A stretch of 50,902 nucleotides of DNA from a bacterium (GTDB lineage: Bacteria > CG03), in contig VMTI01000239.1 in assembly GCA_013791675.1 (NCBI GenBank), positions 1-50,902 of the forward strand, written 5' to 3'. The translations under genes and the position numbers were made by a program. Below are positions 28,944 through 48,717 of the stretch, piece by piece; the first letter of the stretch is position 1, and each line of letters opens with the position of its first letter. Below the pieces are notes generated by a model. It did no database searches, was not told the origin of the DNA, and was given only the letters and a program-made list of their open reading frames with translations.

Positions 28944-29064
28944 TCATTCGGGGTTACGGACGCTGATCCCCGCCTGACTTGACTTCCGGGCAAGCGCGAA
29001 AGCCGTAATAATGCTATAATGCGGAAAGTAACAGTTGACTAAAATATCAACAAAAGGAAAATTT

Positions 29065-30535: not shown

Positions 30536-30676
30536 ATGAAGAAAGCCAAAGTGAAAGCAAACATCGTAAAAACGCCCCAGGGCAAAACTCCTGTCCAGTT
30601 ACTTACCCTCAGCTATAAACGGGCAAGGGCTATCCGGCATCTTCAAAAGATCAATAAGGCAATTCCAAAACAATGA
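30536..30676 (+). CDS. small basic ORF (46 aa), possible partner of the downstream nucleotidyltransferase-like gene
   Basis: Not in the ORF track (too short). Sequence MKKAKVKANIVKTPQGKTPVQLLTLSYKRARAIRHLQKINKAIPKQ. AAGGA RBS. ATGA stop/start overlap with the 30673 ORF. Confidence 0.4.
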   Translation: MKKAKVKANIVKTPQGKTPVQLLTLSYKRARAIRHLQKINKAIPKQ

Positions 30677-31239: not shown

Positions 31240-31291
31240 GATCCTTTTTGCCGATAATGTACAACATTATTGAAGAGGAGTATCATCCCCA

Positions 31292-31900: not shown

Positions 31901-31979
31901 CAACTGCCGACACCCCGGACCTTTACTTTTGGGCTATACTTGTTAAAATTTACGAATGTAGCGATCAGGGAGGATATGA

Positions 31980-32171
31980 ATGAAAGCTAAAACTATTGCC
32001 GTGTTTGTTATGGCGGGGCTGGTATTGATTATTCTTCTGCAGAATACGAAGGTCATTTCTGTGCGGTTCTTCTTCTGGGAATTGAGCATGTCGCAGGTTA
32101 TTTTATTGCCTTTGATCATGTTAGCCGGCTTTCTCGCGGGTTATTTTGTCGCCCGCCTCCGCCGGAATTAA
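31980..32171 (+). CDS. small 2-TM protein, LapA/DUF1049-like, paralogue 1
   Basis: 63 aa with two hydrophobic helices and a basic C-terminus. GGGAGGA RBS. Confidence 0.55.
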   Translation: MKAKTIAVFVMAGLVLIILLQNTKVISVRFFFWELSMSQVILLPLIMLAGFLAGYFVARLRRN

Positions 32172-33127: not shown

Positions 33128-33347
33128 AAAAACTCCTTTTTCTCTTTATCCTGCTTTTTTGATCGCCATCCATTGTAATAAATACAGGAGTTTCTGTCAC
33201 AAAGAGGGAACAGGGACGGTTCTGCCCGCAGTCTCCAAAATTTAAGGCTCTCCGCAGCCTTTGTCTGCGGCGGCTTTTCCTTTTCAGGCAAAAACTATTA
33301 TAATGTAGTCCAATGTACAATATTATTGAAGGGGAGTATCATTCCCA

Positions 33348-33956
33348 GTGCTGATCGAATATTTTAAAAAATACTACAGCAGCGACAGCAGGACCGGCGC
33401 TTATCAAATCGAGATATCTTTAGATAAGTACACGGATGTTTTTAATGAATGGGACCCGGCGCCTTTTAAAAAAAGGGACATCGACCCCGATTTCGAGGAA
33501 TATCTGAAAGGGTGTTCTTCCGATATCCCTCTGAAATATAAGATCGAACTATTTTTATGCCTGCCTGAGGATCAGCATGATCTTCAGAAAGAAAGCATAA
33601 TAAAGGAAGGTATCAAAACCTACTTTCAGTCAAAAATCGAAATCATTAAAAAAACCATCCAATTCATGAACAAAAACACAGGGATATATGCTCTGGTTTC
33701 AGTTGTTTTTCTTATACTGGCGTTATCACTGGAAACTTCTTCAACCAGTAATGTTTTTATAAATCTATTACTTCAGGGTTTGTTCATCGGCGGCTGGGTC
33801 TTTTTATGGGAAGCTTTAAATATATTTGTTTTTCATAAAAGTACAATAAAATATCAGTACAGAGTGTACGAAAGACTTTTGCGCTCGGATATAGAATTCA
33901 AATATATCAGCTTAGCTTGCCCCAGGCCGTTAGCCAACACCCCTGATCTGCTATAA
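33348..33956 (+). CDS. hypothetical membrane protein, paralogue 2
   Basis: 202 aa. The C-terminal 97 aa are identical to paralogue 1. Confidence 0.6.
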   Translation: MLIEYFKKYYSSDSRTGAYQIEISLDKYTDVFNEWDPAPFKKRDIDPDFEEYLKGCSSDIPLKYKIELFLCLPEDQHDLQKESIIKEGIKTYFQSKIEIIKKTIQFMNKNTGIYALVSVVFLILALSLETSSTSNVFINLLLQGLFIGGWVFLWEALNIFVFHKSTIKYQYRVYERLLRSDIEFKYISLACPRPLANTPDLL

Positions 33957-34035
33957 CAACTGCCGGCACCCCGGACTTTTACTTTTAGGCCATACTTGTT
34001 AGAATTTACGGGTGTAGCGATAGGGGAGGATATGA

Positions 34036-34227
34036 ATGAAAGCTAAAACTATTGCCGTGTTTGTTCTGGCGGGGCTGGTATTGATTATTCTGCTGCAGAA
34101 TACGAAGGTCATTTCTTTGCGGTTCTTCTTCTGGGAATTGAGCATGTCGCAGGTTATTTTATTGCCTTTGATCATGTTGGCCGGCTTTCTCGCGGGTTAT
34201 TTTGTCGCCCGCCTCCGCCGGAATTAA
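34036..34227 (+). CDS. small 2-TM LapA/DUF1049-like protein, paralogue 2
   Basis: 63 aa with 2 substitutions versus the 31980 copy. Confidence 0.55.
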   Translation: MKAKTIAVFVLAGLVLIILLQNTKVISLRFFFWELSMSQVILLPLIMLAGFLAGYFVARLRRN

Positions 34228-34507
34228 GGCCGGGATAATTAAGAACTACGGGGAACAAGTCACGAAGATTCCGTCCTGATCAACGCTTGGCAGCAATTGG
34301 TCCATTCTTCATTGGCTATTTTTTGTGTTTTGTGGTAGCATAATAGAGCAAAGATATACTTACTTGATATGTTTTACTGAACATTGCGTTTTGCATACTT
34401 GTTTATTGTTGATTGAATAAAGTGTGTGGGAGGTTTAAGTCAATATGAACACAAATTCTCAAATCAGAACCTGCCCCGTTTTGCATGTGTTGGACCAGGA
34501 CATGGTG

Positions 34508-34536
34508 TTGATAAAAGATAGATAATGAATTAAAAT
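34508..34536 (+). promoter_or_regulatory. sigma70-type promoter, probably giving a leaderless mRNA
   Basis: TTGATA, 17-nt spacer, TAAAAT. The -10 ends only 6 nt before ATG 34543, and there is no RBS. Confidence 0.5.
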
Positions 34537-34542
34537 ATCACC

Positions 34543-35055
34543 ATGCAAGATAACCATGAAAAGCAGATACGTGTAACTCATTACGTTCTCTGGTTTTTAC
34601 TTAATATATTTCTTGGGATTATACCATTTGTAACACCTTTTTTTTCTCCATTAAGAGATGTGAACCAATTGTTTTCAAGTTTTATAGCTTATGCATTTAC
34701 TCTAATTATTATTAACGCTTATCTCTTCGATACATTCGTCAGAACATCCAACGAAATTGTTAAATTTGAAAGAATATGGTTTTGGTTTGCTGTTATCATT
34801 TCATTTATTCTGATTATTTTTTTTGTGTTGTTTAACGTTCTTATGCTTGTATGGAATTTCCCGCAGGCACTGGTGTTATGGGCGTCTTTCTTTCTATTTG
34901 TGTTTACGATTGGATATACATTTCTTTTAAATAAGCCATTGATTCAAAGGGATATAAAAAATGAAATTAATAAATCCATAATAAAGGAAGTTGAAGATAT
35001 AAACAATAACATGTCTGCAATGAAGAAAAAAATAATGGAAAAAGGAACTTGGTAA
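34543..35055 (+). CDS. hypothetical 4-TM membrane protein with a charged C-terminal tail
   Basis: 170 aa with four hydrophobic segments and a Lys/Glu/Asn-rich C-terminus. Lies 14 nt upstream of the DGQHR gene. Confidence 0.6.
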   Translation: MQDNHEKQIRVTHYVLWFLLNIFLGIIPFVTPFFSPLRDVNQLFSSFIAYAFTLIIINAYLFDTFVRTSNEIVKFERIWFWFAVIISFILIIFFVLFNVLMLVWNFPQALVLWASFFLFVFTIGYTFLLNKPLIQRDIKNEINKSIIKEVEDINNNMSAMKKKIMEKGTW

Positions 35056-35069
35056 ATATAGGTGATACA

Positions 35070-36425
35070 ATGATTGAAGAAATAATTAATAAAAATGGCA
35101 AAGAATATTTAAAAGTTGAATTAATACAAATAACTCAAAAAAATAAAAAATTTTATATATCAAAAATATCAGCAAAAAGATTTCTAAAGATATATACTGT
35201 CGAACCAGCCGAGTATGATATTGAAAGACAAGCAAATTTTGCATCTAGTTTTGAAGATGATAGAGAATATTATGAGCATTTAATGAATAATGACAAAGAA
35301 AGAATTAATAAAAAATCATTCCAAAGACCTTCAAATGATACAAGAGTTTCAGAAATCAAAAATTTTTTAAATACTAATGAAATAGGACTTTTTCCTAATT
35401 CAATAATAGTAACTTGTGATTTACTCAACGATAAAATAGGTGAATGTAATATTGCATTTAATGAAGTAGATTCTTTTGAAAACAGGCCAAAATCCGCATA
35501 CCTTGAGGAAATTGATAATAATATATTTTTATATATTCCATATCAAAAAGACTCGGTGCTAGTTATAGACGGGCAACATAGATTGTTAGGTCTAAAAGCT
35601 GCAAGCAAAGAGGTAACAGAAGATTATGAGCTGATTATTACTTTTATTATCGGTTTCGATAGATCAATAGTAGCGAATTTATTTTATACAATAAACTACA
35701 CACAAAAAAGTGTCAATAAATCAGTTTTATATCATCTAATGGGTGAGTTTTCAAGAGAAATAGACAAAATGGCATTTATGCACGGCACAATAAAAATATT
35801 GAACGAAATAGAAGAATCGGCCTTATACAAAAGAATAAAAATGTTAGGTAATGTGCCAAAATCTTTATCCAACGAAGTGCGAAAACAAATGACAATTTCG
35901 CAAGCATTTTTAATAGATTATTTAATTGGATACATATCAAAAGAAGCTAAAAACAGTATTCATCAACCTATTTTCTATTACTATTATAAAAGTGAGAATA
36001 TGAGAATAGAAATTATACAATTTTTATTGAAATATTTTGATAGCATAAGAGAGGCATTACCAGAACAATGGGATAATGTGGATGAATATATTTTAACAAA
36101 AACCGTAGGCCTTGGCGCATGTATAAAATTACTTCCGTTTTTGTATGTAAAAATGTTTATTGACGAATATCAGATGGATCCAAAAAAAATAGTACAAATC
36201 AATGTAAATACACTGAAGAATCATTTAAAAGGAATTGAAACTATCAATTTTTCAAAATCAGGCGAATATGGAAGTGTGGGAAGTGCCGGGAGTTTAAACA
36301 AGTTAAAAAAGCAACTTATTGAAAATATAGATTTCTTTCAGGCGGATAATTATGAGGATTTTTTGAGAGTATTTAAAGAGAACTATCTTAGTAAATACAA
36401 AAAGTGGCTAACTAAATATCTATAG
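35070..36425 (+). CDS. DGQHR-domain protein (DndB/DpdB-type ParB/Srx-fold)
   Basis: Literal VLVIDGQHRLLGLKAA motif plus the downstream FYTINYTQKSVNKS block. ATG 35070 preferred over TTG 35049. Confidence 0.8.
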   Translation: MIEEIINKNGKEYLKVELIQITQKNKKFYISKISAKRFLKIYTVEPAEYDIERQANFASSFEDDREYYEHLMNNDKERINKKSFQRPSNDTRVSEIKNFLNTNEIGLFPNSIIVTCDLLNDKIGECNIAFNEVDSFENRPKSAYLEEIDNNIFLYIPYQKDSVLVIDGQHRLLGLKAASKEVTEDYELIITFIIGFDRSIVANLFYTINYTQKSVNKSVLYHLMGEFSREIDKMAFMHGTIKILNEIEESALYKRIKMLGNVPKSLSNEVRKQMTISQAFLIDYLIGYISKEAKNSIHQPIFYYYYKSENMRIEIIQFLLKYFDSIREALPEQWDNVDEYILTKTVGLGACIKLLPFLYVKMFIDEYQMDPKKIVQINVNTLKNHLKGIETINFSKSGEYGSVGSAGSLNKLKKQLIENIDFFQADNYEDFLRVFKENYLSKYKKWLTKYL

Positions 36426-36624
36426 GAAAAATGGGAACGTATTGGATATTAACTGGCCGAGGGCAAATTTTAGATTTGTTATAGTCCTGTTTTTTTTAGT
36501 GGTCGAGATTTACAAAATAGAATTTCGACAACTAAGCAATATCTCAGTTTTTTTTATTGGAATGTAACTTATATATATTGTTGATCTTATTTCAAGAGGG
36601 TTGATTATCGAATGGAGAATTATT

Positions 36625-37014
36625 ATGGATGGTGTGAAACTAAATCAGAATGAAAAGCATGAATTGCTAAGATTAATTAACAGTTATGCTGACAAAGTAT
36701 CGGAAGATGATATAAAAGAAATAGAGAAAAAAATAAATCAAAAGATTAAAATAATAAAAAAGAACAAAAGATATCCATCGTATGTAAAGCAAATGATACG
36801 TCAGGTGAAATGCTTATATGCCTTATTAAAATCACCCGATATATCCAAAGAAAGATTAAATAGAGTCATATCTGCATTACATTATTTTGTTTTGGCAGAA
36901 GATATGATACCAGATTATATACAAGTTCGGGGTTATCTAGATGATGCATTTGTAATAGATGTTGTATACCAAGAAATGAAAAAAGATATAAGAGAATTAG
37001 AAGGATGTGATTAG
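36625..37014 (+). CDS. DUF1232 (YkvA-like) domain protein
   Basis: C-terminal LHYFVLAEDMIPDYIQVRGYLDDAFVIDVV matches the DUF1232 signature (D.IPD.iP..GY.DD). GGAG RBS 8 nt upstream of ATG 36625. Confidence 0.65.
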   Translation: MDGVKLNQNEKHELLRLINSYADKVSEDDIKEIEKKINQKIKIIKKNKRYPSYVKQMIRQVKCLYALLKSPDISKERLNRVISALHYFVLAEDMIPDYIQVRGYLDDAFVIDVVYQEMKKDIRELEGCD

Positions 37015-37039
37015 AAATTGATAACTTATAGGAGGGGAT

Positions 37040-37585
37040 ATGGAAATTAAATTGATATCTGTCGATGAAATTGAATTAGACAAAACCAATCCAAGGATTG
37101 CTAAATATCTTGAAATGTATGGGAAAGATATAACAGCAGAACAAATATCGCTAGCATTAGGTGTGGGAGATAGTCAGGTAGCTGAGAATGGAACCACATT
37201 TCAGTCATTAAAAGCATCAATAAAAACAAATGGTGGTATAATACATCCAATAATTGTCAATAAAAGATCAGATGGGATTTATAGAGTAGTTGAGGGTAAT
37301 ACAAGGTTAGCTATATATAAAGAATTTAGCAAAGATGAACGCACACATGGCACTTGGAATGAAATACTCACGGTAGTGCATGACGATTTATCTAATGAAC
37401 AAATTGATGCCATCAGACTTCAGGCACATTTAGTAGGACCCCGACCATGGGACCCTTATTCAAAGGCAAAGTACTTGGATTATCTCTATAACTCTGAAAA
37501 TTTACCAATGAGTCAAATAGTTGATTATTGCGGTGGTAGAAAAAATGAGGTGATATCTTATATTGAAGCCTATAAAATGATGTAA
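37040..37585 (+). CDS. ParB/Srx N-terminal-domain protein, N-terminal 181 codons (ends at an in-frame TAA)
   Basis: ELDKTNPR and VVEGNTRLAIYKE motifs. Paralogous to the 39943 ORF. GGAGGGG RBS. Confidence 0.75.
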   Translation: MEIKLISVDEIELDKTNPRIAKYLEMYGKDITAEQISLALGVGDSQVAENGTTFQSLKASIKTNGGIIHPIIVNKRSDGIYRVVEGNTRLAIYKEFSKDERTHGTWNEILTVVHDDLSNEQIDAIRLQAHLVGPRPWDPYSKAKYLDYLYNSENLPMSQIVDYCGGRKNEVISYIEAYKMM

Positions 37586-37648
37586 TCGCACTATCGGCCT
37601 CAATTATCAAGTGATGATGAATTTGATACAACAAGGTTTTCTGCTTTC

Positions 37649-38053
37649 GTGGAGTATCAACACCCTAGAATTAAAGAAGCAATTGTAAGAGCTGGTTTCA
37701 ATGAAGATGATTTTTCTCAATGGGTGAATGATCATAAAATTCATCCTTTATGGACAGTTCGCAGAATACCAAACATATTAGAAAATCCTCGCAGTAAAGA
37801 GGTGTTTCTCACTCATGGTAGAGGTTCAGCAAGAGAAGCATTAAAATTATTAGATAAGCCTTCTGGAGATAAAGTTCTTAAAGACACATCTATGATACAA
37901 TTAGCTCGGGAATTATTGGAAAGAATTTTGGCTTTGCCATATGGGGAAGTTCAACGTTTAAAATCAGATTCATCAAGTGATGAAGTTTTTACATTTTTAG
38001 AAGTGCGAGACCAATTAATTGAATTATGCAGGGATATTCGTAATGAAGAATAG
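37649..38053 (+). CDS. C-terminal continuation of the ParB/Srx-like gene (same frame as 37040)
   Basis: Same reading frame as 37040-37585, and the 63 nt between them have no further stop. Combined length of 337 codons matches the 334-aa paralogue. Confidence 0.6.
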   Translation: MEYQHPRIKEAIVRAGFNEDDFSQWVNDHKIHPLWTVRRIPNILENPRSKEVFLTHGRGSAREALKLLDKPSGDKVLKDTSMIQLARELLERILALPYGEVQRLKSDSSSDEVFTFLEVRDQLIELCRDIRNEE

Positions 38054-38056
38054 GGT

Positions 38057-38464
38057 ATGAGAGAAACAAAAATTCATTCGCAACTGGTTGCATTTACAAA
38101 ACAATGGATAGAAAAGGAGTATGTAAGTAAGAGAGTGGAGATCATTGGAGTAGATTCAGTTACAGAAAATTTTCAAGTATTACCAAATATAAATGGTTTT
38201 ATCCCGGATATTTTCGCTAAATGCTTGGTTAATAATTTACAAATAATTGGCGAGGCAGAATCTTCTAAGGGACTAAATTCCCAACATACAGAACAACAAC
38301 TTAAAGCATTTATCAGATATTGTTTTCTAAACAATGCACATTTAATAGTAGGTGTGCCTTGGGATTTAGTGCCTTATGCTAGGAAATTAATAAAGTTTTA
38401 TATTAGTGAGTGTAAGGCTGAAGGCGTGATTGTGATTATCCCTGACAATATGGCAGTAGGATAA
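38057..38464 (+). CDS. hypothetical 135-aa protein, possible PD-(D/E)xK-like nuclease fold
   Basis: GFIPDIFAK ... QIIGEAESSKG resembles a PD...E-x-E...K arrangement. Weak call. Gaps to the neighbouring genes are 3 nt and 1 nt. Confidence 0.35.
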   Translation: MRETKIHSQLVAFTKQWIEKEYVSKRVEIIGVDSVTENFQVLPNINGFIPDIFAKCLVNNLQIIGEAESSKGLNSQHTEQQLKAFIRYCFLNNAHLIVGVPWDLVPYARKLIKFYISECKAEGVIVIIPDNMAVG

Positions 38465-38465
38465 A

Positions 38466-39956
38466 ATGAAAATATTCTTAAAACAGGAACCAAATTATTT
38501 ACCTAAATATAGTTCTTTTTCTTATCAAGAAGAAGCTGTTAAAGCTATTCAAGATTTAGAATATGCCGCAATATTCCATGAGCAGGGACTCGGGAAAACT
38601 AAAATAGCTATAGATTTAATTTTATATTGGTTCGAGAAGAAGGAAGTAGATACCGTTTTAATTGTAGCGAAGAAAAGTTTAATTAATAACTGGATCAATG
38701 AGTTGGGTGTTCACACGCACATTAAGCCACGAGTGCTAACGCAGAACAAGAAAGCTAATTATTATGTTTTTAATAGCCCTGCAAAAATAATGTTAATAAA
38801 TTATGAAGTTATGAAATCTGAGAATACGAGGATGGAGCTTTTTTTAAAGACTCGAGATGTTGCTGTGATATTGGATGAATCAACGAAAATAAAAAATCCA
38901 GAATCAGATTTAACACAGGAATATTTAAGATTATCAAAATTTTTTAAAAAAAGAATCATTATGACCGGCACACCAGTTGCAAATAGGCCGTATGACATAT
39001 GGTCACAAATATGGTTTCTTGATCAAGGCAAAAGCTTAGGTAATGATTTCAATAATTTTAAAAAAGACTTTGACTTAGCAAACACTTTATACAAGGATAC
39101 TGATTTAAGAGAGAACTTTGAATCACAAATTTCTTTAATTGAAGATAAAATATCAAAATTTACTGTAAGAGAAACAAAAGCTAGTGGGGTATTAGATTTG
39201 CCTGAAAAAATTATTAAAATTATAAAAACAAAATGGGAGATACATCAACGGGAATTATACAACCAAATCAAAGATGAAGAAAAGGCCTTCGTAATTAAAA
39301 ATGGAATTCCCACTGAAGATGATTCCAAAATTATTGTAAAACGACTCTTGCGTTTAGTGCAAGTGGCATCTAATCCAAAATTAGTAGATGACAGTTATAA
39401 GCAGTCTCCCGGAAAGCTGAATTCATTGATTACTATATTAGATGATATAAAAAGGAATGATGAAAAGTGTATCATCTGGACATCTTTTACAGCTAACGCA
39501 GATTGGCTTAAAACGAAGCTTGTAGAATATGGGACGTGTAAGGTACATGGTAAAATACCCATAGATATTAGGAACAGAACAATTAACAATTTTTTGACAG
39601 ATAAAAAATATAGAGTTTTAATAGCCACGCCAGGGGCAGCGAAGGAGGGATTAACCTTAACAGTTGCAAATCATGTAATATTCTATGATAGAAGTTTTAG
39701 TTTAGATGATTACTTACAAGCGCAAGATAGAATTCATAGATATTCACAAAAACGGAAATGTTATGTATATAATTTAATCATGGAAGACTCCATTGACGAA
39801 CTACTTGAAATTATGTTATCCAGTAAACATCTTGCTGCACAATTAACACAAGGGGATATTTCATTAGATTTTTATAAGAGTAAGATTTCTTACAAATATG
39901 GAGAAATAATAAAAGAAATTTTGGGAATTAAGGAGGATGATTATGACAGAGGATGA
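38466..39956 (+). CDS. SNF2-family ATPase/translocase
   Basis: GLGKT (motif I), ILDESTKIKN (II), MTGTPVANRPYDIWSQIWFLD (III), LIATPGAAKEGLTLTVANHVIFYD (V), QAQDRIHRYSQKR (VI). Confidence 0.88.
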   Translation: MKIFLKQEPNYLPKYSSFSYQEEAVKAIQDLEYAAIFHEQGLGKTKIAIDLILYWFEKKEVDTVLIVAKKSLINNWINELGVHTHIKPRVLTQNKKANYYVFNSPAKIMLINYEVMKSENTRMELFLKTRDVAVILDESTKIKNPESDLTQEYLRLSKFFKKRIIMTGTPVANRPYDIWSQIWFLDQGKSLGNDFNNFKKDFDLANTLYKDTDLRENFESQISLIEDKISKFTVRETKASGVLDLPEKIIKIIKTKWEIHQRELYNQIKDEEKAFVIKNGIPTEDDSKIIVKRLLRLVQVASNPKLVDDSYKQSPGKLNSLITILDDIKRNDEKCIIWTSFTANADWLKTKLVEYGTCKVHGKIPIDIRNRTINNFLTDKKYRVLIATPGAAKEGLTLTVANHVIFYDRSFSLDDYLQAQDRIHRYSQKRKCYVYNLIMEDSIDELLEIMLSSKHLAAQLTQGDISLDFYKSKISYKYGEIIKEILGIKEDDYDRG

Positions 39957-40941
39957 TTGGGTAAAAGATACTATTACTCTTCGTGGCGAAGAAATCCCGG
40001 TTAGAGTAGGATATTTAACACAGGCAGAATTAAAATTTTATCCTGAAAATCCTCGGGTTTATACAATATTATCAGCAGGCACAAAAGAGCCGACACAACA
40101 AGAAATAGAAATCCAATTATTGGCAAGAGATAACGTAAAGCAATTGGTGCAATCGATTAAAGCAAATGGGGGATTAACAGACCCCGTTTTTGTATTAGAT
40201 GGCTCAAATATTGTGATAGAAGGCAATAGCCGTTTAGCTGCTTATAGAGCTTTAGCCAGGTCAAATCCAATTCAATGGGGAAAAATTAAATGTAAAGTGT
40301 TACCCAAAGAGATAGATGAGGATAAGATATTTTCATTGTTAGGGGAATATCATATTATAGGCAAGCAAGATTGGATTCCTTACGAACAAGCAGGTTATTT
40401 ATACAGGCGCTGTATATTTCATAAAGTTAAGCCAGAATTAATAGCAAAAGATTTAGGACTAACTGAGTCAAAGGTCAATCACCTAATAGGCGTGTATACT
40501 TTCATGGTAGCAAATGAAGATAATGCACCAGATAGATGGAGTTATTATGACGAGTATATGAAGTCAAGCAAAATAAAGAAAATAAGAAAGAAATATCCGG
40601 AATTTGATGAGATAGTAGTGCAGAAAATAAAATCGCAAGAAATTCCTAAAGCTATCGACGTAAGGGAAGGTTTGAAAAAAATTGCAAATTCAAATGACAA
40701 AATAGTTAAGTCTTTTATAAACGGGAAAGCTGATTTTCAAGAATCTATGGAACATGCAATAAGTGGCGGTTCTGATACGAATTGTTATCAAAAAATCCAA
40801 AAATTTAGATTGTGGTTTGTCGATCCTAAAACAAGAAAAGAAGTATCGAATATGTCTGAACAAGTAACTAAGAAATGCATATATGAGCTTAAAAAAATAA
40901 AACAAGGATTAGAATTTTTACTAAACAGACTGGATGCCTGA
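39943..40941 (+). CDS. ParB/Srx N-terminal-domain protein (intact paralogue)
   Basis: YPENPR and VIEGNSRLAAYRA motifs. AAGGAGG RBS 6 nt upstream of ATG 39943 (alternative ATG at 39937). Overlaps the SNF2 stop. Confidence 0.78.
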   Translation: MTEDDWVKDTITLRGEEIPVRVGYLTQAELKFYPENPRVYTILSAGTKEPTQQEIEIQLLARDNVKQLVQSIKANGGLTDPVFVLDGSNIVIEGNSRLAAYRALARSNPIQWGKIKCKVLPKEIDEDKIFSLLGEYHIIGKQDWIPYEQAGYLYRRCIFHKVKPELIAKDLGLTESKVNHLIGVYTFMVANEDNAPDRWSYYDEYMKSSKIKKIRKKYPEFDEIVVQKIKSQEIPKAIDVREGLKKIANSNDKIVKSFINGKADFQESMEHAISGGSDTNCYQKIQKFRLWFVDPKTRKEVSNMSEQVTKKCIYELKKIKQGLEFLLNRLDA

Positions 40942-40953
40942 TTTTATTAGATT

Positions 40954-42264
40954 ATGAGTAAAAAGATATTATTGATTGAGCCTTCATATAAAAATAAGTA
41001 CCCACCATTGGGCTTAATGAAGATTGCTACATATCATAAAAGCAAAGGGCACGAGGTGGTTTTTTTTAAGGGATGTTCTCCAAATTTAAAATTGCAGGTA
41101 TGGGATAGAATATATATTTCAACACTTTTTACATTTTATTGGGCTAAAACAATTGAAACAATTGAATATTACAGCAATAGCGTAAAAAAAAGTTCTAATA
41201 TTTATGTTGGAGGAGTGATGGCTACATTAATGAAAGATGAAATTAAAAAGCATAGTAATGTAACCGTTATATCAGGTTTATTGAATCAGAATGGTAAATT
41301 AGGGTATAAAGATGATGGAACAATAGACTACTTAACGCCAGATTATTCTATAATTGATCAAGAACATAACCCATTACTAGATTATGTCTATCCTCAGGGA
41401 GATTCATATATTGGATATGCGACTAGAGGATGTATTAGGAAATGTAAATTTTGTGCAGTACCAATCATTGAGCCGGAATTTATGAATGGGCTTTCAATAA
41501 AAAAACAAATAAATTCTATTAAAAAACATTTTGGCGAAAAACGCAATTTACTTTTATTAGATAATAACATTTTGGCATCAGATAGGTTCGAAGAAATAAT
41601 AGAAGAGATTAAAAACCTTGGGTTTGAAAAAAATGCACAATATTCGACAATTAGGAATAATAGAACCGTGTATTTAAAAAGATACGTAGATTTTAATCAA
41701 GGCATAGATGCTAGATTATTGACTAATTCAAAAGTTCAAAAATTGAGTGAAATTGCAATTCAGCCTATCAGAATAGCTTTTGACGACATTAAATTTAAAG
41801 ATATTTATGTTCAAAAGGTTAGACTAGTGGCAGAATATGGAATAAAAGCATTATCAAATTATATACTTTTCAATTTTAATGATACGCCAGAAGATTTTTA
41901 TGAGAGATTAAGAATTAACGTAGAATTAAATTGCGAATTTGAAAACAAAGGATATGCAAGTAGGATATGGTCATTCCCAATGAAATATTCCCCCATTTTT
42001 GGCCCCGAGGCTAAAAATAGAAAGCATGTAGGGAAATATTGGAACAAGGAATATTTACGAGGAGTACAGTGTATACTATTAGCAACACATGGTTTAGTTG
42101 GTCCCAAAATGAAATATTTTGATACCGCCTTTGGTCGCAATTTTGCAGAATTCAAAAAAATTATTACAACACGGCCTGAAGAAAAAATTTTATATAGAAC
42201 TAAAGAATGGCTCAATAGACCTTTTATTCCAAGGCGTCTATTCATAAAAGAGAAGGAAGTGTAA
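40954..42264 (+). CDS. radical SAM protein with an N-terminal B12-binding-like (Rossmann) domain
   Basis: CX3CX2C cluster motif in GYATRGCIRKCKFCAVP. The N-terminus KILLIEPSYKNKYPPLGLMKIATYHKSKGHEVVFF resembles class-B rSAM N-domains. Confidence 0.8.
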   Translation: MSKKILLIEPSYKNKYPPLGLMKIATYHKSKGHEVVFFKGCSPNLKLQVWDRIYISTLFTFYWAKTIETIEYYSNSVKKSSNIYVGGVMATLMKDEIKKHSNVTVISGLLNQNGKLGYKDDGTIDYLTPDYSIIDQEHNPLLDYVYPQGDSYIGYATRGCIRKCKFCAVPIIEPEFMNGLSIKKQINSIKKHFGEKRNLLLLDNNILASDRFEEIIEEIKNLGFEKNAQYSTIRNNRTVYLKRYVDFNQGIDARLLTNSKVQKLSEIAIQPIRIAFDDIKFKDIYVQKVRLVAEYGIKALSNYILFNFNDTPEDFYERLRINVELNCEFENKGYASRIWSFPMKYSPIFGPEAKNRKHVGKYWNKEYLRGVQCILLATHGLVGPKMKYFDTAFGRNFAEFKKIITTRPEEKILYRTKEWLNRPFIPRRLFIKEKEV

Positions 42265-42375
42265 AACTCGCCTCGGACATTTACTTAATATACTGATTGA
42301 ATAGAAAAATTGTAAAGTGCCGGGACTGGGCGGAAAATTGATGTTGATGTGCGTATGTGAATATGGAGGGAGAAA

Positions 42376-43080
42376 ATGAATAAATTGGAAATGTTTTGTA
42401 GGAGAGGGTTTTTTATTGCAATTTTATTTTTATGCAGTTGCGCTATGATAATGCAACAGCCCAGAACGGCATATGAATTAAAAATAAATGCGCAATCAAA
42501 AGCAGAACTTGAAAAACATGGTTTAACGGTGGCTGTTCAGCCGATAATTTTAGAAAATTGTAGTTCGTTTCCGGAAATTTATGCAAAAACAACATATAAA
42601 ACCAGCGAAGGCGAAGTTAGAAATATAGAATTTTCAGTAATAGATATTCCGGCGTTTGCAATTTCAATTACCAATAAGACGGGTGATGTGGTTAAGTTTG
42701 ATAAATGTAATATGAATTTGGAAGATGATTTGGGAAAAAGTTATCAGTCGCAGGACGAACAGGAATTAAATCAAGAAATTGATCAGTTTTTTGCCGATTT
42801 TAATGTCAAGGGATCTATTTTGAATAAGGGGCCTATCGAATCAAAAATTGAGGCATTAAAACTTATGGATAAAAAGTTGATTATATTGCCGAATAAGACA
42901 GAGGATGTGTTTTTAGCGTTTAATGTTATATCGGCAAATATAGAATCTTATATGGAGTTTTTATCAGGGAAAAAATATTTAAAAGTTTCGCTAAACAATA
43001 TTGCAATAAAATCGGATAAGCATATTGGGAGCAATGAAACTGTGAATTTTGAATTTATCTTTGATGTAAATCAATTGTGA
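42376..43080 (+). CDS. hypothetical lipoprotein
   Basis: Signal with a lipobox-like LFLCSC. GGAGGGAG RBS. No recognisable domain. Confidence 0.6.
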   Translation: MNKLEMFCRRGFFIAILFLCSCAMIMQQPRTAYELKINAQSKAELEKHGLTVAVQPIILENCSSFPEIYAKTTYKTSEGEVRNIEFSVIDIPAFAISITNKTGDVVKFDKCNMNLEDDLGKSYQSQDEQELNQEIDQFFADFNVKGSILNKGPIESKIEALKLMDKKLIILPNKTEDVFLAFNVISANIESYMEFLSGKKYLKVSLNNIAIKSDKHIGSNETVNFEFIFDVNQL

Positions 43081-43272
43081 GGCCGCCTAAGTTTCATTTC
43101 CCATTTTAGTACAATATTTGGAATAGAGTTTGTAGAATGATAAAAGATGTTGGAAAGTGTCTCATGTTTTTAGGCGCAAAGCGTCCAATTGTTTTTGAAG
43201 ACATACAATGAGGTGAAAATTATCGGAGAGCTTGTTAAAGTTCTTACTGTAAATTAGAAAATAGGAGGCAAA

Positions 43273-44238
43273 ATGCCGAGAAAAACATCTAAACGTTCCA
43301 ATGATCCTGAATTCCATCGGAAAAATTTGCGGGAATATTTAGCACAGCAAAAAAAAGAAAATTATGAGGCTGGTGTGAATTTAGAAATGTTCATTGAAAA
43401 ATTGTTAACACTTTTTTCAGATACTCCTCCCATAACTTGGCGGTTTCGATTAACAACTTATAAAAATCCGGTGTTTCGTATATATAATCAATCAACACGG
43501 AGATCAGGAGATTTTCTACTCATAACAAACCGCGGATTAACTATTATGCACAAATATTTTGATAAGAGATTCAGAAATCTTTTTCCTAAAAAGAAGACTT
43601 TTTATGGTAATGGGGACACTGCTCGAATAGATTATTCTGTGTTTGATCAAGTAACAAGAAAAAAATATTATGATGCTATAAAATCAATGGTGACAACTAA
43701 TAAGGACTGGGGAATTAACTTCCCGGGTGTTATGGTAGATAGTTTAAGCGAGCAGGATAGTAAACCATATAACGATTTACCCACTACGTATGACAATGGC
43801 GCTAAAGATGATAGTGATTTTTATCAGATTCTAAGATCAAAAATAAGAAAATGGGCCGCGTCAAAAAAAGGTAAGAATAATAAGTGGGTAGAATTTATAC
43901 TTTTGGCTCCAGATTTATTTCATTTATTATGCAAGTTAGTTATAGATGATGACGTTTCATTAGAGGATAAAGTTAAACTCGCACTGGTAATAGTGTATTT
44001 TGTATCCCCGTTAGACTTGATCCCCGAGGGGATACTGGGCCCTATGGCTTATGTTGACGATATCGCTCTGTCGGTGTATGTTTTGAATCGGATTCTTAAC
44101 AATACTAGCCCCGAAGTTCTTAGAAGGCATTGGGTTGGGGAAGAGGATATTTTGACTGTTATAAAACAGATACTTAAAGTTGCTGATCAAATGGTCGGCT
44201 CTGGACTGTGGTCGAAGTTGAAAGGAATGATTAGGTAA
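43273..44238 (+). CDS. protein with a C-terminal DUF1232 (YkvA-like) domain
   Basis: ALVIVYFVSPLDLIPEGILGPMAYVDDIALSVYVLNRIL. AGGAGG RBS. Confidence 0.65.
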   Translation: MPRKTSKRSNDPEFHRKNLREYLAQQKKENYEAGVNLEMFIEKLLTLFSDTPPITWRFRLTTYKNPVFRIYNQSTRRSGDFLLITNRGLTIMHKYFDKRFRNLFPKKKTFYGNGDTARIDYSVFDQVTRKKYYDAIKSMVTTNKDWGINFPGVMVDSLSEQDSKPYNDLPTTYDNGAKDDSDFYQILRSKIRKWAASKKGKNNKWVEFILLAPDLFHLLCKLVIDDDVSLEDKVKLALVIVYFVSPLDLIPEGILGPMAYVDDIALSVYVLNRILNNTSPEVLRRHWVGEEDILTVIKQILKVADQMVGSGLWSKLKGMIR

Positions 44239-44328
44239 ATTTTAATACGGTGATACTGTGGCAGGTATTTTAAATGAGGAAAGTTAGACGGTTCCCAGTT
44301 TTATCGTTATAAAAAGGAGGTGTAAGGT

Positions 44329-45309
44329 ATGGCTGTTCAAAGGTGTGAGTGCTGTCACGAACAGATAGCGCCTTATGCAAAATACTGCAATTGGTGCGGG
44401 TATGGACCAAGGAAAAGAAAGCCAAAAGCAGGAGAATATTATTGTAAGCAGTGTCATGAGATGGTGGGGAAAGAGTTCTCATACTGCCCATGGTGCGGAG
44501 AAGACTTTAAGGACGATTACGCCTGGGAACCAGATGATGGGGAGCTTACACCCGCGGTGAAAAGATTTAACTTTGATATTAAATGTCCACAATGTAAATA
44601 CGGTTGTTGTGCTACCATGGATTACTGTCCTTGGTGCGGTACAAAGCTTTCCGATTACAAATTTATTGGTTTTAGTAATTGCGTCGTGTGTGGTAATTCT
44701 GGCCTTGGAAATTGGCAGCATTGTGTTTTTTGCGGAGCATTCTTACAACAAGTCGTACGGCTTTCAGAAAAGAAACGTGTGAGCTTGTCTAAAGAAGCAC
44801 TTTTTTTTCTTACAAGCGCTACAGTGGAAAGGCTAAAGGAAGTGAGGCCTGGGAAATGGTTCTGGAACTCTGACTTGAAGGGTTTTGAGACTCTCGGATT
44901 CCTATTTGGGGAAAAAACTGCCACAGCATATAAGGTTACACACATCTTTCCGATGGCTTCAGCTGAATCTAAGCAGGATAGTGTTGGTTGGAATCCGGAC
45001 GCTTTAAAAGGATTAGTAAACCATATGCAGTTGGAATTGCCTCGAGGTTTAAATCTGATTGGGGACTTTCATAGCCATCCAGATGATAAGAATCCTTCTC
45101 CGAGCATTGTCGATTACAAAGGCACCTTGGGTGATATGGTCTCTATCATTGTAGCGCTCCATAAAACTACAAAAAAGTCTTTCCGCTGGAAGTTTAATAA
45201 GAAAATTGGCATGCTTGAGGGAGTTAAGGGTGGTGTGTATTTTCGCATATGTGCTTATCATAGAAATAAGAAAGGTGTTGCCGAATTGTTGAATATCGTC
45301 GGGGCGTGA
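44329..45309 (+). CDS. four zinc-ribbon repeats fused to a JAB/MPN (JAMM) metallopeptidase-like domain
   Basis: Four CxxC...C(x)WCG units in the N-terminal half. ETLGFLFGE plus GDFHSHPDDKNPSPSIVD gives an E...HxH...S..D JAMM-like pattern, with one extra spacer residue. Confidence 0.7.
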   Translation: MAVQRCECCHEQIAPYAKYCNWCGYGPRKRKPKAGEYYCKQCHEMVGKEFSYCPWCGEDFKDDYAWEPDDGELTPAVKRFNFDIKCPQCKYGCCATMDYCPWCGTKLSDYKFIGFSNCVVCGNSGLGNWQHCVFCGAFLQQVVRLSEKKRVSLSKEALFFLTSATVERLKEVRPGKWFWNSDLKGFETLGFLFGEKTATAYKVTHIFPMASAESKQDSVGWNPDALKGLVNHMQLELPRGLNLIGDFHSHPDDKNPSPSIVDYKGTLGDMVSIIVALHKTTKKSFRWKFNKKIGMLEGVKGGVYFRICAYHRNKKGVAELLNIVGA

Positions 45310-45673: not shown

Positions 45674-45772
45674 AATAATTGGCGCCGGTACTTTACACTA
45701 AGACAGAAACTTGCAAAAATCAAAATGGACTGGAGAATTAATGATAAAAATAAAGACGGTGAAAGCGGGCGT

Positions 45773-46291
45773 ATGAGAATAGAGATAATACAGGCGGATA
45801 TAACGCGGCTTAAGGTTGATGCCATCGTCAATGCGGCAAATAAGACTTTGTGCGGGGGCGGCGGAGTGGACGGCGCGATTCACAGAGCCGCCGGAGCCCG
45901 GCTGCTGGCGGAGTGCAGGGCCTTAAACGGCTGTGAAACAGGACATGTGAAAATAACAAAGGGATATGATCTGCCGGCAAAGTGTGTGATCCACGCTGTC
46001 GGGCCCGTGTGGAACGGCGGCAACAGGGATGAAGAAGCTCTGCTGGCCTCCTGTTACAGGGAAAGCATTCTGCTGGCGGATGAGCACAAGCTGAGATCTA
46101 TTGCTTTTCCGGCGATCAGCTGCGGTGTTTACAGGTTCCCGATAGAGAAGGCGGCTGACATCGCAATAAGGTCAACATTGGAGACAGCGGAAAACACTTC
46201 GATCGAACACATCATCTTTGCCTGTTTTGAGGACAGGATCGAGAAAGCTCTCAAGGACAGTTTGTATAATGCGGGACATGAGGAGATATAA
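45773..46291 (+). CDS. ymdB: macro-domain protein (O-acetyl-ADP-ribose deacetylase / ADP-ribose hydrolase type)
   Basis: [34 protein letters not shown] and [11 protein letters not shown]. Internal ATG 45773 gives the family-typical N-terminus (the ORF track starts at 45725). Confidence 0.85.
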
Positions 46292-47050
46292 ATGGGAAAC
46301 TGGTCAAAATTCATAGGGGCGGGATTAGGTTGGGCTCTTGGAGGGCCTATCGGCGCTGTAGCGGGGTATTTTATCGCCGGAGCAATGGATCCGGACGCCG
46401 GCGCTGAACTTCATAACCCTGCCAATCGCGGACACATAGTCTTTACAAATCTCATCGCCTTTATGGCCCTGATTGTTAAGGCGGATAATAAGATCAAAGA
46501 GTCGGAAAAGAAAAGCGCTATGGATATACTGTCCCAAATGTTTAAGCTGGATCATCAGGATCAGGCGTTAAGCAGACAGATGTTTACGAAGTTTCTGAAC
46601 GAACACATAGATGTGGATGAACTCTGCGCCGGTTTTAATAAGATCGCTGACGGGGATATGAAGATTGTTCTTATGGAAATACTTTTTAAAATAGCGTTGA
46701 GCGATATGGAATTTCATCCGTTGGAAGAAAAGCTTATAGACGATATCGCCTCGCAACTTGGTTTCAGCGAATATGAGATCCGTTCAATGAAGGTTTCTTA
46801 TACATCGGCGCACGGGGATGGAGCCAAAACCGCCGGCGGCGCTCAGGATATAAAAAAGTATTATGACATATTGGAACTTCCGTACAACGCTTCTTTGGAC
46901 GAGATTAAAAAAGCTTACAGAAAACTTATGCTGAAATATCATCCGGACAGATTCGCCGGCATAGATCCTGTCGCCCATGAATTAATAAACGCAAAAGCCG
47001 CCGAGATCAACGAAGCGTATAATAAGGTGCAGAGCGCAAAACAGAATTAG
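46292..47050 (+). CDS. djlA: DjlA-like co-chaperone (TM + TerB-like domain + C-terminal J domain)
   Basis: C-terminal [31 protein letters not shown] with HPD. N-terminal Gly-rich TM. Its ATG directly abuts the macro gene's TAA. Confidence 0.72.
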
Positions 47051-47401: not shown

Positions 47402-47590
47402 ATGAAATATGAAGTTAAGCTGGAACGAGACAAGAGGGAATCAGCAGTAATAACTGTCGACGCTAAAGATGAAGATGACGCCAGCGAAAAAGCTTTGGAT
47501 ATTGCCGGGCCGTACGGGAGCTGTGTTGATTTTGATAATGAGGGAAGTTGTCCAAGAGTTTATGTCAGTGATATAGAGGAACTGGGGTAA
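47402..47590 (+). CDS. small acidic hypothetical protein (62 aa)
   Basis: Strong RBS. TAATG overlap with the downstream DUF1016 gene. Confidence 0.55.
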   Translation: MKYEVKLERDKRESAVITVDAKDEDDASEKALDIAGPYGSCVDFDNEGSCPRVYVSDIEELG

Positions 47591-48717
47591 TGAAACCAAA
47601 AAAGAAATCCGGACAAGCCGTGATTAAAGCTACCAAGTCCCCAGTAATAGGGTATAGCTCAGTTCTTAAAAATATTCTTGAAATTATTAATGATGCCCGG
47701 CGATATTCCGCGAAATCAATTAATGCTGTTATGACGGCAACTTACTGGGAGATAGGCAGAAGGATTGTTGAACTTGAGCAGGCCGGAAAGAAAAGGGCAG
47801 AATATGGGAAGGGATTGATTAATAAACTTTCTGCTGATTTAACAACCAAATTTCGCCGAGGGTTTGGCGTGGATAATCTGCAAAGAATGCGTCTTTTTTA
47901 TACATATTTTCAAGGAGACTTAATTTACGCGACACTGTCGCGTAAATCTATTCTTAATATTCAGGATGCAGTCAAGTATTTTCCTCTCCCCTGGTCGGCA
48001 TATGTTGCCTTGCTGTCTGTGAAAAATGACAGTGCCCGGAAATTTTATGAAGACGAAACCCTCCGATGCGGCTGGTCAATCCGCCAGTTAAACAGACAGA
48101 TCAATTCAATGTTTTATGAGCGAACGGCGCTGTCCCGCAATAAGGCAAAGATGCTTCAAGAAGGGGCTATTGCCTTAAAAGAAGACATTGTAAGTCCTGA
48201 AGAAGAGATAAAAGATCCATGTGTTCTGGAGTTTCTAAGTCTTAAGGATGAATATTCCGAAGGCGCTCTTGAAGAAGCTCTTGTTTTACATTTGGAGAAA
48301 TTCCTTCTTGAACTAGGAGAAGACTTCGCGTTTATAAGCCGTCAAAAACGTTTACGAATCGGGGATAAGTGGTACAGGGTTGACCTCTTGTTTTTTCATA
48401 GAAGGTTAAAATGCCTTGTAGTTGTTGACTTAAAAGTCGGGGAATTCACACACGCTGATGCCGGGCAGATGCACATGTATCTGAACTATGCGAAAGAACA
48501 CTGGACAAATACCGGTGAAAATCCTCCTGTCGGATTGATCCTTTGCGCTCAAAAAAATGAATCGCTTGCGAAATATGCGCTTAAAGATTTACCGAACAAA
48601 GTTATGACTGCGGAATATAAGACTGTTTTACCGGACGTGAGATTACTTGCCGGAGAATTAAAGAAAACACAAAAAATGCTGGAAGGACGTAAATCATTAG
48701 AAGAAAAGGAGGATTGA
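47590..48717 (+). CDS. DUF1016/YhcG-family PD-(D/E)xK nuclease-like protein
   Basis: 375 aa. NLQRMRLFYTYF ... LPWSAYVALLSV N-domain, and a C-terminal D...VVVDLKVG (D-x-K) nuclease core. Confidence 0.75.
   Translation: MKPKKKSGQAVIKATKSPVIGYSSVLKNILEIINDARRYSAKSINAVMTATYWEIGRRIVELEQAGKKRAEYGKGLINKLSADLTTKFRRGFGVDNLQRMRLFYTYFQGDLIYATLSRKSILNIQDAVKYFPLPWSAYVALLSVKNDSARKFYEDETLRCGWSIRQLNRQINSMFYERTALSRNKAKMLQEGAIALKEDIVSPEEEIKDPCVLEFLSLKDEYSEGALEEALVLHLEKFLLELGEDFAFISRQKRLRIGDKWYRVDLLFFHRRLKCLVVVDLKVGEFTHADAGQMHMYLNYAKEHWTNTGENPPVGLILCAQKNESLAKYALKDLPNKVMTAEYKTVLPDVRLLAGELKKTQKMLEGRKSLEEKED

Follow-up and report, generated by a model that had tools for sequence, protein, structure and literature searches.

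A radical SAM family linked to DNA-tracking and nuclease modules: a possible DNA-modifying enzyme of restriction-modification-like immunity

On what substrate does a radical S-adenosylmethionine (SAM) enzyme act when its gene stands last in an operon with an SNF2 translocase and ParB-like proteins? The question is raised by a stretch of 50,902 nucleotides (nt) of bacterial DNA (GenBank assembly GCA_013791675.1, contig VMTI01000239.1, positions 1 to 50,902), referred to below as the window, in which a radical SAM (rSAM) gene closes an operon of nine genes. A preliminary description, made from the DNA letters alone, had presented its product as an orphan, class-B-like rSAM enzyme that may act on DNA or nucleotides. 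In this study the protein was found to belong to a widespread and so far unnamed family, the genes of which are embedded in varying cassettes of DNA-tracking nucleoside triphosphatases (NTPases) and nucleases. That the rSAM protein is a DNA-modifying enzyme in restriction-modification-like immunity is the best-supported reading of these data, with about even chances of being right; its DNA substrate and any class-B use of cobalamin are what we infer from the fold and the gene context.

A conserved family with a Rossmann domain and a radical SAM barrel

The CX3CX2C motif that provides the ligands of the [4Fe-4S]/SAM cluster lies about 160 amino acids (aa) into the protein, as had been noted before (C160, C164 and C167), and is preceded by the equally correctly described N-terminal segment KILLIEPS...PPLGLMKIATYHKSKGHEVVFF at residues 4-38. 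The protein consists of a Rossmann (B12-binding-like) domain at residues ~1-120 and a barrel that starts at residue ~150. Pfam Radical_SAM (PF04055) matches the window protein with an E-value of 9e-7 (29.6 bits; cut-off, 29.5) and was found in all 57 aligned family members, and the B12-binding family PF02310 matches residues 12-99 below its cut-off (E-value, 1.7e-3; 18.6 bits; cut-off, 32.1), with sub-threshold matches in 31 of the 57 members. An AlphaFold2 model built on 57 homologs reached a predicted local distance difference test score (pLDDT) of 91.3 and a predicted template modelling score of 0.87, with values below 50 at residues 415-424 alone; in it, an alpha/beta domain of the Rossmann type precedes the barrel. 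When this model was compared with the PDB using Foldseek, solely two-domain rSAM enzymes of 11-16% identity were retrieved at E<1e-6, with MgmA, MiaB/MtaB/RimO, AprD4, and TsrM as the top matches (E-values of 4e-13 to 7e-7; TM-scores of about 0.5); the closest was MgmA (9ccb; E-value, 4e-13; TMq, 0.56), and AprD4 matched as well as MgmA and TsrM did. The likeness to rSAM enzymes with a cobalamin-binding domain that had been proposed earlier is therefore borne out as a fold resemblance (MgmA, TsrM), beyond which cobalamin binding may be a further property of the family. The spacing of S56-x-L58 and G86-G87, read from the sequence of the window protein, resembles SxL...GG, which is part of the classic B12 motif.

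A known rSAM subfamily was sought for the window protein, but no specific assignment resulted from NCBIfam, Pfam, PADLOC, and PDB sequence searches. All NCBIfam matches fell far under their cut-offs, the best being that to RimO with 19.7 bits vs 357, and the B12-rSAM families (HpnJ, PhpK, ladderane, TIGR04013, and others) gave E-values of 2e-3 to 9e-3 and 15-17 bits vs cut-offs of 251-600. In PADLOC no family, viperin models included, was matched at E<=0.01, and no sequence relatives were detected in the PDB with either the single sequence or a 57-sequence profile. The protein was thus not placed with confidence in any known subfamily; placement in one with a non-DNA substrate would, according to the preliminary description, have spoken against its proposal.

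Searches for homologs revealed a large conserved family, so that the label "orphan" had to be given up. A word-index search returned at least 8000 scored candidates, the best 120 of which share 57-72% identity with the window protein, are about 471 aa long, and are labelled merely "hypothetical" or "cobalamin-binding domain-containing protein". When 1.84 billion representatives at 50% identity were searched exhaustively with a profile, the number of clusters obtained was 419 at E<=1e-30 and rose to 1470 at E<=1e-10, and at least 552 loci of the family were found in a scan of one genome per species. Among the listed loci the hosts comprise Nitrospirota, Bacillota, Chloroflexota, Planctomycetota (including Brocadia), Desulfobacterota, Spirochaetota, Bacteroidota, Patescibacteria, Alphaproteobacteria, and one Thorarchaeote. 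Neither the family nor its linkage was found described in full-text literature searches, but an earlier mention may exist in Krishnan et al. 2020, reportedly the first description of CxC systems.

An alignment of 113 diverse members, down to 37% identity, was used to assess conservation. C160, C164, and C167 are conserved at 99-100%, and the positions conserved at 93% or more are G86-G87, CX3CX2C, D203-N-N, D246-F-N-Q-G-x-D252, R273/D277, N307/D310, P342-M, R356, W363, and R369, all of which the window protein possesses; R415 is also among the conserved residues. No conserved cysteine was found outside CX3CX2C in the 113 members, and C41 of the window protein is replaced in several close homologs, so that an auxiliary iron-sulfur cluster of the MiaB/RimO type is unlikely. 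The family is basic throughout, with a median isoelectric point of 9.3.

Several members deviate in length. In P0144, P0146, P0157, and P0173 the C-terminal tail is expanded to 200-370 aa; such extensions were considered as a functional clue and discarded, as they form a helical family of their own, have no Pfam match, and are unlike any partner. In representatives of 620-680 aa (P0127, P0129-P0133, and similar ones), ~140 extra residues break the profile match into three stretches. P0198 (791 aa) carries an N-terminal extension of 312 aa that is weakly similar to the C-terminal part of DGQHR proteins (E-value, 1e-7; about 21% identity) and, judged from this similarity, may be a natural DGQHR-rSAM fusion.

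Partner modules, reciprocal linkage and mobile carriers

Clear links emerge between the rSAM gene and genes for DNA-directed proteins. For 80 genome loci, which represent more than 15 phyla, open reading frames (ORFs) were called up to 7 kb from the rSAM gene and then clustered. At least one of ParB, DGQHR, SNF2, CxC-ABC, GHKL, PD-lambda-5_A, or BglII was present within this distance in 74 of the 80 loci, and the rSAM gene forms one operon with its partners, which it overlaps or adjoins (gaps of -1 to -77 nt). Every partner is either a DNA-tracking NTPase (ParB/Srx including DGQHR, SNF2, CxC-ABC, GHKL, HerA) or a nuclease (PbeA-HKD, NurA, BglII-type, PD-(D/E)xK-like, PD-lambda-5_A). No single partner protein is universal, and the rSAM protein is the sole constant enzyme across all cassette types.

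The arrangement of the window, termed cassette A, is ParB-(unk134)-unk135-SNF2-ParB-(DGQHR)-rSAM and accounts for ~20 of the 80 loci. Cassette B, likewise present at ~20 loci, encodes a ~1000-aa protein, PbeA (3e-216), PbeC (4e-164, with a "CICG" CxC motif), and a 148-aa protein, followed by the rSAM protein. In cassette C (22 loci) a DGQHR gene, coding for either ~340 aa or a long form of ~757 aa, lies directly upstream of the rSAM gene with a median gap of -77 nt, and in cassette D (20 loci) the rSAM gene is adjoined by that of a GHKL ATPase (HATPase_c_3, 1e-9). A full-length PD-Lambda-5_A homolog (2e-62) adjoins the rSAM protein at the six loci of cassette E, four of which lie beside a DpnII restriction-modification cassette; its hosts include Lachnospiraceae, where this homolog is the immediate neighbour. 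Cassette F combines NurA/HerA-like genes with GHKL in loci L072 and L076 and in four viral contigs, and annotated HerA and NurA genes are found next to the rSAM homolog of the temperate Marinitoga camini virus 1. In cassette G (three loci) a BglII-type restriction endonuclease (3.5e-13) is encoded directly upstream of the rSAM protein, replacing the second ParB in L045. The 80 loci also include two-gene forms, rSAM with GHKL and rSAM with DGQHR, that have no recognisable nuclease. Although most partner modules hold nucleases, Dam, beta-class N6/N4, and C5 methylases were detected in just 4 of the 80 cassettes.

The linkage was also tested in reverse, using ParB-like protein 2 as anchor in metagenome contigs. 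An rSAM homolog is encoded at 47 of the 55 such loci for which 1.5 kb or more of downstream sequence was available, and most of the eight exceptions correspond to contigs that end inside an intervening DGQHR or GHKL module, to insertion-sequence insertions, or to island edges. One exception that none of these circumstances explains is L157, in which the 8 kb downstream hold an opposite-strand GHKL pair alone and no rSAM gene. At none of the 55 loci was another enzyme found to replace the rSAM protein in the ParB-SNF2-ParB module. The association with SNF2 and ParB proteins is consequently a feature that recurs across phyla and is not unique to this contig; had it been so, the original proposal would have been refuted by its own terms.

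The rSAM protein is far more conserved than its partners. For 63 type-A loci, the identities to the window proteins were found to be correlated between SNF2 and ParB (Spearman 0.76; p 4e-13) but not between rSAM and SNF2 (-0.22), which indicates exchange of the rSAM gene separately from the module that accompanies it. In metagenome loci L086-L089, L099, L101, L102, L105, L118, and L133, the slot behind near-identical ParB-SNF2-ParB modules is filled by rSAM proteins of a divergent subclade (34-41% identity), which are about 530 aa long and contain an N-terminal insertion within their Rossmann domain; this suggests that rSAM "alleles" are interchangeable. Two IMG/VR contigs, L168 and L174 (around positions 5000-10600), encode four conserved proteins of unassigned function (V94-V97), then a family member, and then a second, different B12-rSAM-like protein of 411-415 aa with the motif ARGCPYACHYC.

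Plasmids were searched with tblastn, and full-length members (42-43% identity; 97% coverage) were identified in Rhizobium, Mesorhizobium, Bradyrhizobium, Agrobacterium, Roseomonas, and Novosphingobium. The conjugative plasmid pR132505 of R. leguminosarum WSM1325 possesses an ortholog of the whole operon, consisting of a ParB1+unk134 fusion (56% and 37% identity), unk135, SNF2 (53%), ParB2 (48%), DGQHR, and rSAM (43%), followed by a GHKL ATPase, and the conjugative plasmid pNL1 of N. aromaticivorans DSM 12444 carries DGQHR-rSAM-GHKL and a long DGQHR gene. On both plasmids the cassette is flanked by genes for a PIN-like domain protein and a second GHKL-type "ATP-binding protein" (pR132505 locus L243, 12212-15728; pNL1 locus L244, 4084-7637), a pair that could either belong to the system as an additional module or constitute a defence system of its own.

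Homologs are also encoded by phages. PHROG 9298 (phrog_9298), annotated as "radical SAM domain protein", matches residues 3-327 of the window protein at 3e-49. This short form of ~300 aa ends near residue 305-327 and has no C-terminal third, and it shares the Rossmann domain, CX3CX2C, and the DNN and DFNQG motifs. Of 62 retrieved IMG/VR loci that encode the short form, 31 also encode a DNA methyltransferase (PHROG 363, 67, 954) at a distance of up to 5 kb, and at 21 it is no more than two genes away. Isolated phages with the short form include Clostridium phage phiCT453B, Bacteroides phage LoVEphage, and Phocaeicola phage PV4-TP1.

The window operon and its surroundings

The nine genes of the window operon (34543-42264; Table 1) are tightly packed, and all nine ORFs are intact. 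As had been stated, no partner gene for a peptide, a cofactor, a lipid, or tRNA modification is present among them. The DGQHR protein, which the preliminary description did not name, matches TIGR03187 (DGQHR) at 7e-41 (140.7 bits; cut-off, 58.9), Pfam DndB at 1e-8, and PADLOC DpdB at 3e-17, and stays below the equivalog cut-offs for DpdB (51 bits vs 300) and DGQHR_dnd_1 (117 vs 450). The first two operon genes (34543-36425) were found again directly after ParB-like protein 2 in metagenome locus L127 (1382-3067), so that this pair looks like a unit. ParB-like protein 1 matches PADLOC PDC-M38A (2e-7) and PD-Lambda-5_A (1.5e-5) and shows 27-67% identity across type-A loci, and in the family alignment of ParB-like protein 2 (A3) N38-P39-R40 and E95-G96-N97-x-R99 are invariant. 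The SNF2 protein resembles PADLOC ZorD (8e-51) and DpdE (4e-37) and PbeA merely at 5e-9.

Table 1. Coordinates of the operon genes, the cluster motif and the island in the window.
Feature	Position	Strand	Remarks
Low-GC (guanine-plus-cytosine) island holding the operon, ~31% GC vs 45-50% in the flanks	34300..44300	.	Composition profile; approximate boundaries
Predicted membrane protein, 170 aa	34543..35055	+	First operon gene; 7-nt overlap with DGQHR start; no Pfam, NCBIfam or PADLOC match
DGQHR-domain protein (ParB/Srx superfamily, DndB/DpdB-like), 458 aa	35049..36425	+	IDGQHR motif intact
DUF1232 protein, 137 aa	36601..37014	+	Pfam DUF1232, 1e-7; homolog at the same place in L107, 53% identity
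ParB-like protein 1, 181 aa	37040..37585	+	Motif VEGNTRL; Pfam ParB_N, 3e-4 (below cut-off)
unk134, conserved small protein, 134 aa	37649..38053	+	No Pfam, NCBIfam or PADLOC match; syntenic homologs in most ParB-SNF2-ParB loci
unk135, PD-(D/E)xK-like candidate nuclease, 135 aa	38057..38464	+	Motif alignment
SNF2-family ATPase/translocase, minimal, 496 aa	38466..39956	+	Pfam SNF2-rel_dom, 1e-30; Helicase_C, 2e-18
ParB-like protein 2, 334 aa	39937..40941	+	Motif IEGNSRLAAYR; PADLOC PDC-M38A, 7e-10
Radical SAM enzyme, 436 aa	40954..42264	+	ORF with ATG start; last gene of operon
CX3CX2C codons (C160, C164, C167; C-IRK-C-KF-C)	41431-41454	+	[4Fe-4S]/SAM cluster ligands, from translation

Two proteins of the window deviate from their families. 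The window rSAM protein departs from the other members after about residue 405 (42150-42264, residues ~405-436), and a C-terminal helical tail of ~50 aa, which is present in nearly all homologs, is absent from it. A frameshift was considered as the cause and rejected, since three-frame translation and tblastn with homolog tails revealed nothing downstream. The same 436-aa allele was found again in assemblies from three samples and is hence not an assembly error. The second protein is unk135, which had no homolog other than itself in the index search and reached a pLDDT of 44 in a single-sequence model. In an alignment of 51 distinct homologs from related loci, H7, D33, P50-D51, G65-E66-A67-K68 (96%), D72 (96%), H77, and Q81 are conserved, and by sequence the signature PD...(G)E-A-K is a PD-(D/E)xK nuclease-like motif. 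In the window, as read directly from the codons, E-A-E takes the place of the family's E-A-K (K68E; codon 38258-38260) and D72 is replaced by glycine. To judge from these substitutions, the protein may be inactive in the window, or it may use a shifted lysine three residues downstream ("SSK") instead.

The island is flanked by chromosomal functions, for example, an RND efflux pump and surface proteins sorted by the type IX secretion system. Weak evidence points to a promoter-like site at 34508-34536, upstream of the operon; in promoter and terminator scans, matches were no commoner than in shuffled sequence and hence carry no information. Just upstream of the island lies a direct duplication of ~0.9 kb (31256-32171 and 33312-34227), the copies of which start 2056 nt apart and share 97% identity over the 300 nt reported; it may mark the island boundary. 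Each copy contains two ORFs, one for a membrane protein of 202 aa and one of 63 aa, annotated in the database as LapA_dom for L161. Further upstream, a weakly AbiEii-like protein is encoded at 30673-31239, and five tandem 18-nt repeats (TCCGGCGACAGAAAATCC-like) at 30241-30352, at the 3' end of a DEAD-box helicase gene (29035-30378), would give its product a C-terminal tail of repetitive sequence. Downstream of the operon, the segment 43273-50200 resembles a defence island, with genes for a 321-aa protein with a C-terminal DUF1232, a Zn-ribbon and JAB protein (44329-45309; PADLOC JAB, 6e-7), a Macro-domain protein (45725-46291), a TerB-DnaJ protein (46292-47050), and a DUF1016/YhcG nuclease-family protein (47590-48717).

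Proposed function, alternatives and significance

The system would work like Dpd, Dnd/Pbe, or PD-lambda-5, which combine a scanning or restriction module with a modifier, but belongs to none of them, and every equivalog cut-off is missed. Dpd comprises 7-deazaguanine DNA modification by DpdA, DpdB, and DpdC and restriction by DpdD-K, and DpdB works with DpdA. Similar to Dpd, the window operon combines a DpdB-like DGQHR protein and a DpdE-like SNF2 protein with one presumably DNA-directed enzyme on mobile DNA, and the DGQHR gene often lies directly beside the enzyme gene; the operon differs in that the DpdA (TGT-like) transglycosylase, DpdC, and preQ0 genes are absent and the enzyme is an rSAM protein. 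About a quarter of the family loci are PbeA-PbeC cassettes that end in an rSAM gene and thereby resemble Dnd/Pbe, whereas the window operon contains no DndA, DndC, DndD, or DndE, no PbeA (HKD-SF2 helicase), and no PbeC (CxC ABC ATPase), and has ParB and SNF2 proteins instead. The CxC/DndDE scanning core is reported to recruit varied DNA modifiers, either phosphorothioation genes or cytosine methylases, and radical SAM is named there solely in connection with DndC (Rakesh, Aravind & Krishnan 2024, PMC10853773). For PD-lambda-5, one predicted methylase, "methyltransferase" as the top domain match, and an "RM+Abi" description were reported, and it was cloned in an mrr-deleted host (Vassallo et al. 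2022, PMC9519451). PD-Lambda-5_B was matched over its full length by a Dam-type protein (C15) at 4e-15. The PD-Lambda-5_A homologs adjoining the rSAM protein in Lachnospiraceae and the weak PD-Lambda-5_A matches of the window ParB-like proteins link the two systems, but the partner in PD-lambda-5 is a Dam-like methylase, not an rSAM protein, and the window has no strong PD-Lambda-5_A match. In related systems, Dnd genes or DNA methyltransferases occupy the slot that the rSAM gene takes here.

Among rSAM enzymes, the class B methylases (MgmA/QCMT, TsrM) likewise have an N-terminal Rossmann domain followed by an rSAM barrel, but at 11-16% identity there is no sequence-detectable kinship, and no curated B12-rSAM subfamily was reached. 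MiaB, MtaB, and RimO, the substrates of which are nucleic acids or a ribosomal protein, share the overall two-domain fold (E-values of 1e-10 to 7e-7), whereas the window protein has neither their three N-terminal (UPF0004) auxiliary-cluster cysteines nor a TRAM domain detectable with Pfam. The phrog_9298 proteins are true homologs and uncharacterised too, but they occur among phage methyltransferases and not with ParB and SNF2 partners. Viperins, QueE, and OpnA of Ophion are, like the window protein, rSAM enzymes encoded within anti-phage gene clusters, and to our knowledge they have no N-terminal Rossmann domain. Viperins act by nucleotide or nucleic-acid interference, and among rSAM enzymes the spore-photoproduct lyase has DNA as its substrate. 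The earlier statement that rSAM enzymes in immunity are viperins or QueE was incomplete, as Ophion, in which an rSAM protein is paired with PHP and PRTase proteins, is also a validated defence system (bioRxiv 10.1101/2025.09.30.679545).

We propose that the rSAM protein would be the catalytic core of a modular, restriction-modification-like system on mobile DNA, the latter being suggested by the low-GC island of the window and by cassettes that reside on conjugative plasmids and in a temperate virus. Using a single [4Fe-4S] cluster and SAM, and possibly cobalamin on the Rossmann domain, it would put a covalent mark on DNA, the most likely reaction being C-methylation, or a different radical functionalisation of C-H bonds, at a base or sugar. 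The DNA-tracking NTPases, in the window presumably the DGQHR protein, the two ParB-like proteins, and the SNF2 translocase, would deliver or regulate the rSAM protein, and the nuclease of the partner module would attack unmarked DNA, a part that may be played by the PD-(D/E)xK-like protein in the window and by PbeA, NurA, BglII-type, or PD-lambda-5_A proteins elsewhere. Should B12 be bound by the Rossmann domain, cobalamin-dependent C-methylation would be one possible chemistry, to which the MgmA and TsrM matches, the sub-threshold PF02310 matches, and the SxL...GG-like spacing point; another is cobalamin-free radical chemistry as in AprD4. Sulfur insertion by Dnd- or MiaB-like chemistry was rejected as the leading idea, given the absence of auxiliary-cluster cysteines and of a desulfurase or 3'-phosphoadenosine-5'-phosphosulfate reductase partner.

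DNA marking is the most economical explanation of an rSAM protein that is the sole constant enzyme, of the few cassettes with methylases, and of phage homologs placed among anti-restriction methylases. It is further supported by the linkage to DNA-directed partners seen in both directions of the test, by partner modules (PbeA/PbeC, PD-Lambda-5_A) that belong to validated systems pairing with DNA modifiers, by the BglII-type endonuclease of cassette G, by the upstream DGQHR gene of cassette C, which parallels the DpdB-DpdA pairing, by the DGQHR-like extension of P0198, and by the basic nature of the family; stronger conservation and independent exchange of the rSAM gene are as expected of a module with a constant substrate. 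A more specific proposal, to be taken as tentative and slightly short of even chances, is that the family installs a novel radical-derived DNA mark, for example, on an unactivated base or deoxyribose carbon, which serves as self-mark for at least six nuclease/ATPase modules and has been copied by phages (phrog_9298) as an anti-restriction device. Several points weigh against DNA marking. The substrate is assigned wholly from gene context, the methyltransferase screen of the 80 cassettes covered five families only, and the methyltransferase association of the phage homologs was counted without a background control in phage regions that are methylase-rich anyway. With its tail absent from the rSAM protein and the catalytic lysine of unk135 substituted, the window operon may be impaired. 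Cobalamin binding by the Rossmann domain may likewise be absent, as it is in AprD4, an enzyme of the same architecture (PMC12931638).

The loci without a nuclease would fit an effector or epigenetic role as well. As an effector, the rSAM protein would act after the machinery has recognised invading DNA, either damaging or cleaving it by means of the 5'-deoxyadenosyl radical or producing a toxic or chain-terminating nucleotide analogue as viperins do. Its constancy across cassettes, the two-gene forms, the precedent of viperins and Ophion as validated rSAM defences that interfere with nucleotides or nucleic acids, and the presence of AprD4, a cobalamin-free dehydratase, among the best structural matches are all consistent with this role, and ParB-superfamily NTPases could provide a tie to nucleotide pools (discussed in PMC10853773). 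Most modules, however, already contain a dedicated nuclease, and a nuclease cassette without a self-protecting modifier would be toxic to its host; phage homologs among anti-restriction methylases are hard to square with an anti-phage toxin, and no viperin model was matched in PADLOC. We therefore consider an effector unlikely. Action on RNA or protein, such as tRNA or rRNA methylation, MiaB/RimO-like methylthiolation, or maturation of a partner, with the DNA-directed neighbours being mere co-residents of a defence island, appears highly improbable: MiaB, MtaB, and RimO are among the best structural matches, RimO is the best, very weak NCBIfam match, and a basic protein suits RNA binding equally, but the three methylthiotransferase cysteines, any extra conserved cysteine, and a TRAM domain are missing, the operonic gaps and the reciprocal linkage are far tighter than island co-residence, and the absence of a universal partner makes a dedicated protein maturase unlikely.

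Independent of these possibilities is the one that the window system is a decaying remnant that does not work, whatever the family does elsewhere. The lost rSAM tail, which no frameshift recovers, and the two substitutions at 96%-conserved positions of unk135 point in this direction. Yet the nine ORFs are intact and tightly packed, the rSAM protein retains its catalytic core and every family-wide conserved residue, phage homologs work without the tail region, the same allele is kept in three samples, and the "SSK" lysine could substitute in unk135, so that decay is regarded as distinctly unlikely.

A modification-type defence with a new class of enzyme, built on a widespread and unnamed rSAM family, is a conclusion for and against which we see similar odds, and it is directly testable in cultured, genetically tractable carriers, namely, R. 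leguminosarum WSM1325 (pR132505) and N. aromaticivorans DSM 12444 (pNL1). If correct, another enzymatic chemistry, radical SAM chemistry on DNA, would operate in modification-dependent immunity in hundreds of species, on conjugative plasmids, and in phages, hidden so far behind labels such as "radical SAM protein" and "cobalamin-binding domain-containing protein". The novel radical-derived mark tentatively proposed above would add a fourth chemical class to the DNA modifications associated with defence, the other three being SAM-dependent methylation, phosphorothioation, and 7-deazaguanine exchange. A function would also be provided for those orphan variants of the Pbe/CxC, PD-lambda-5_A, DGQHR, and ParB-SNF2 modules in which methylase and Dnd genes are absent. 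Furthermore, rSAM enzymology would gain a new substrate class, and methylome analyses would have to reckon with a new DNA mark that may either confound or enrich them.

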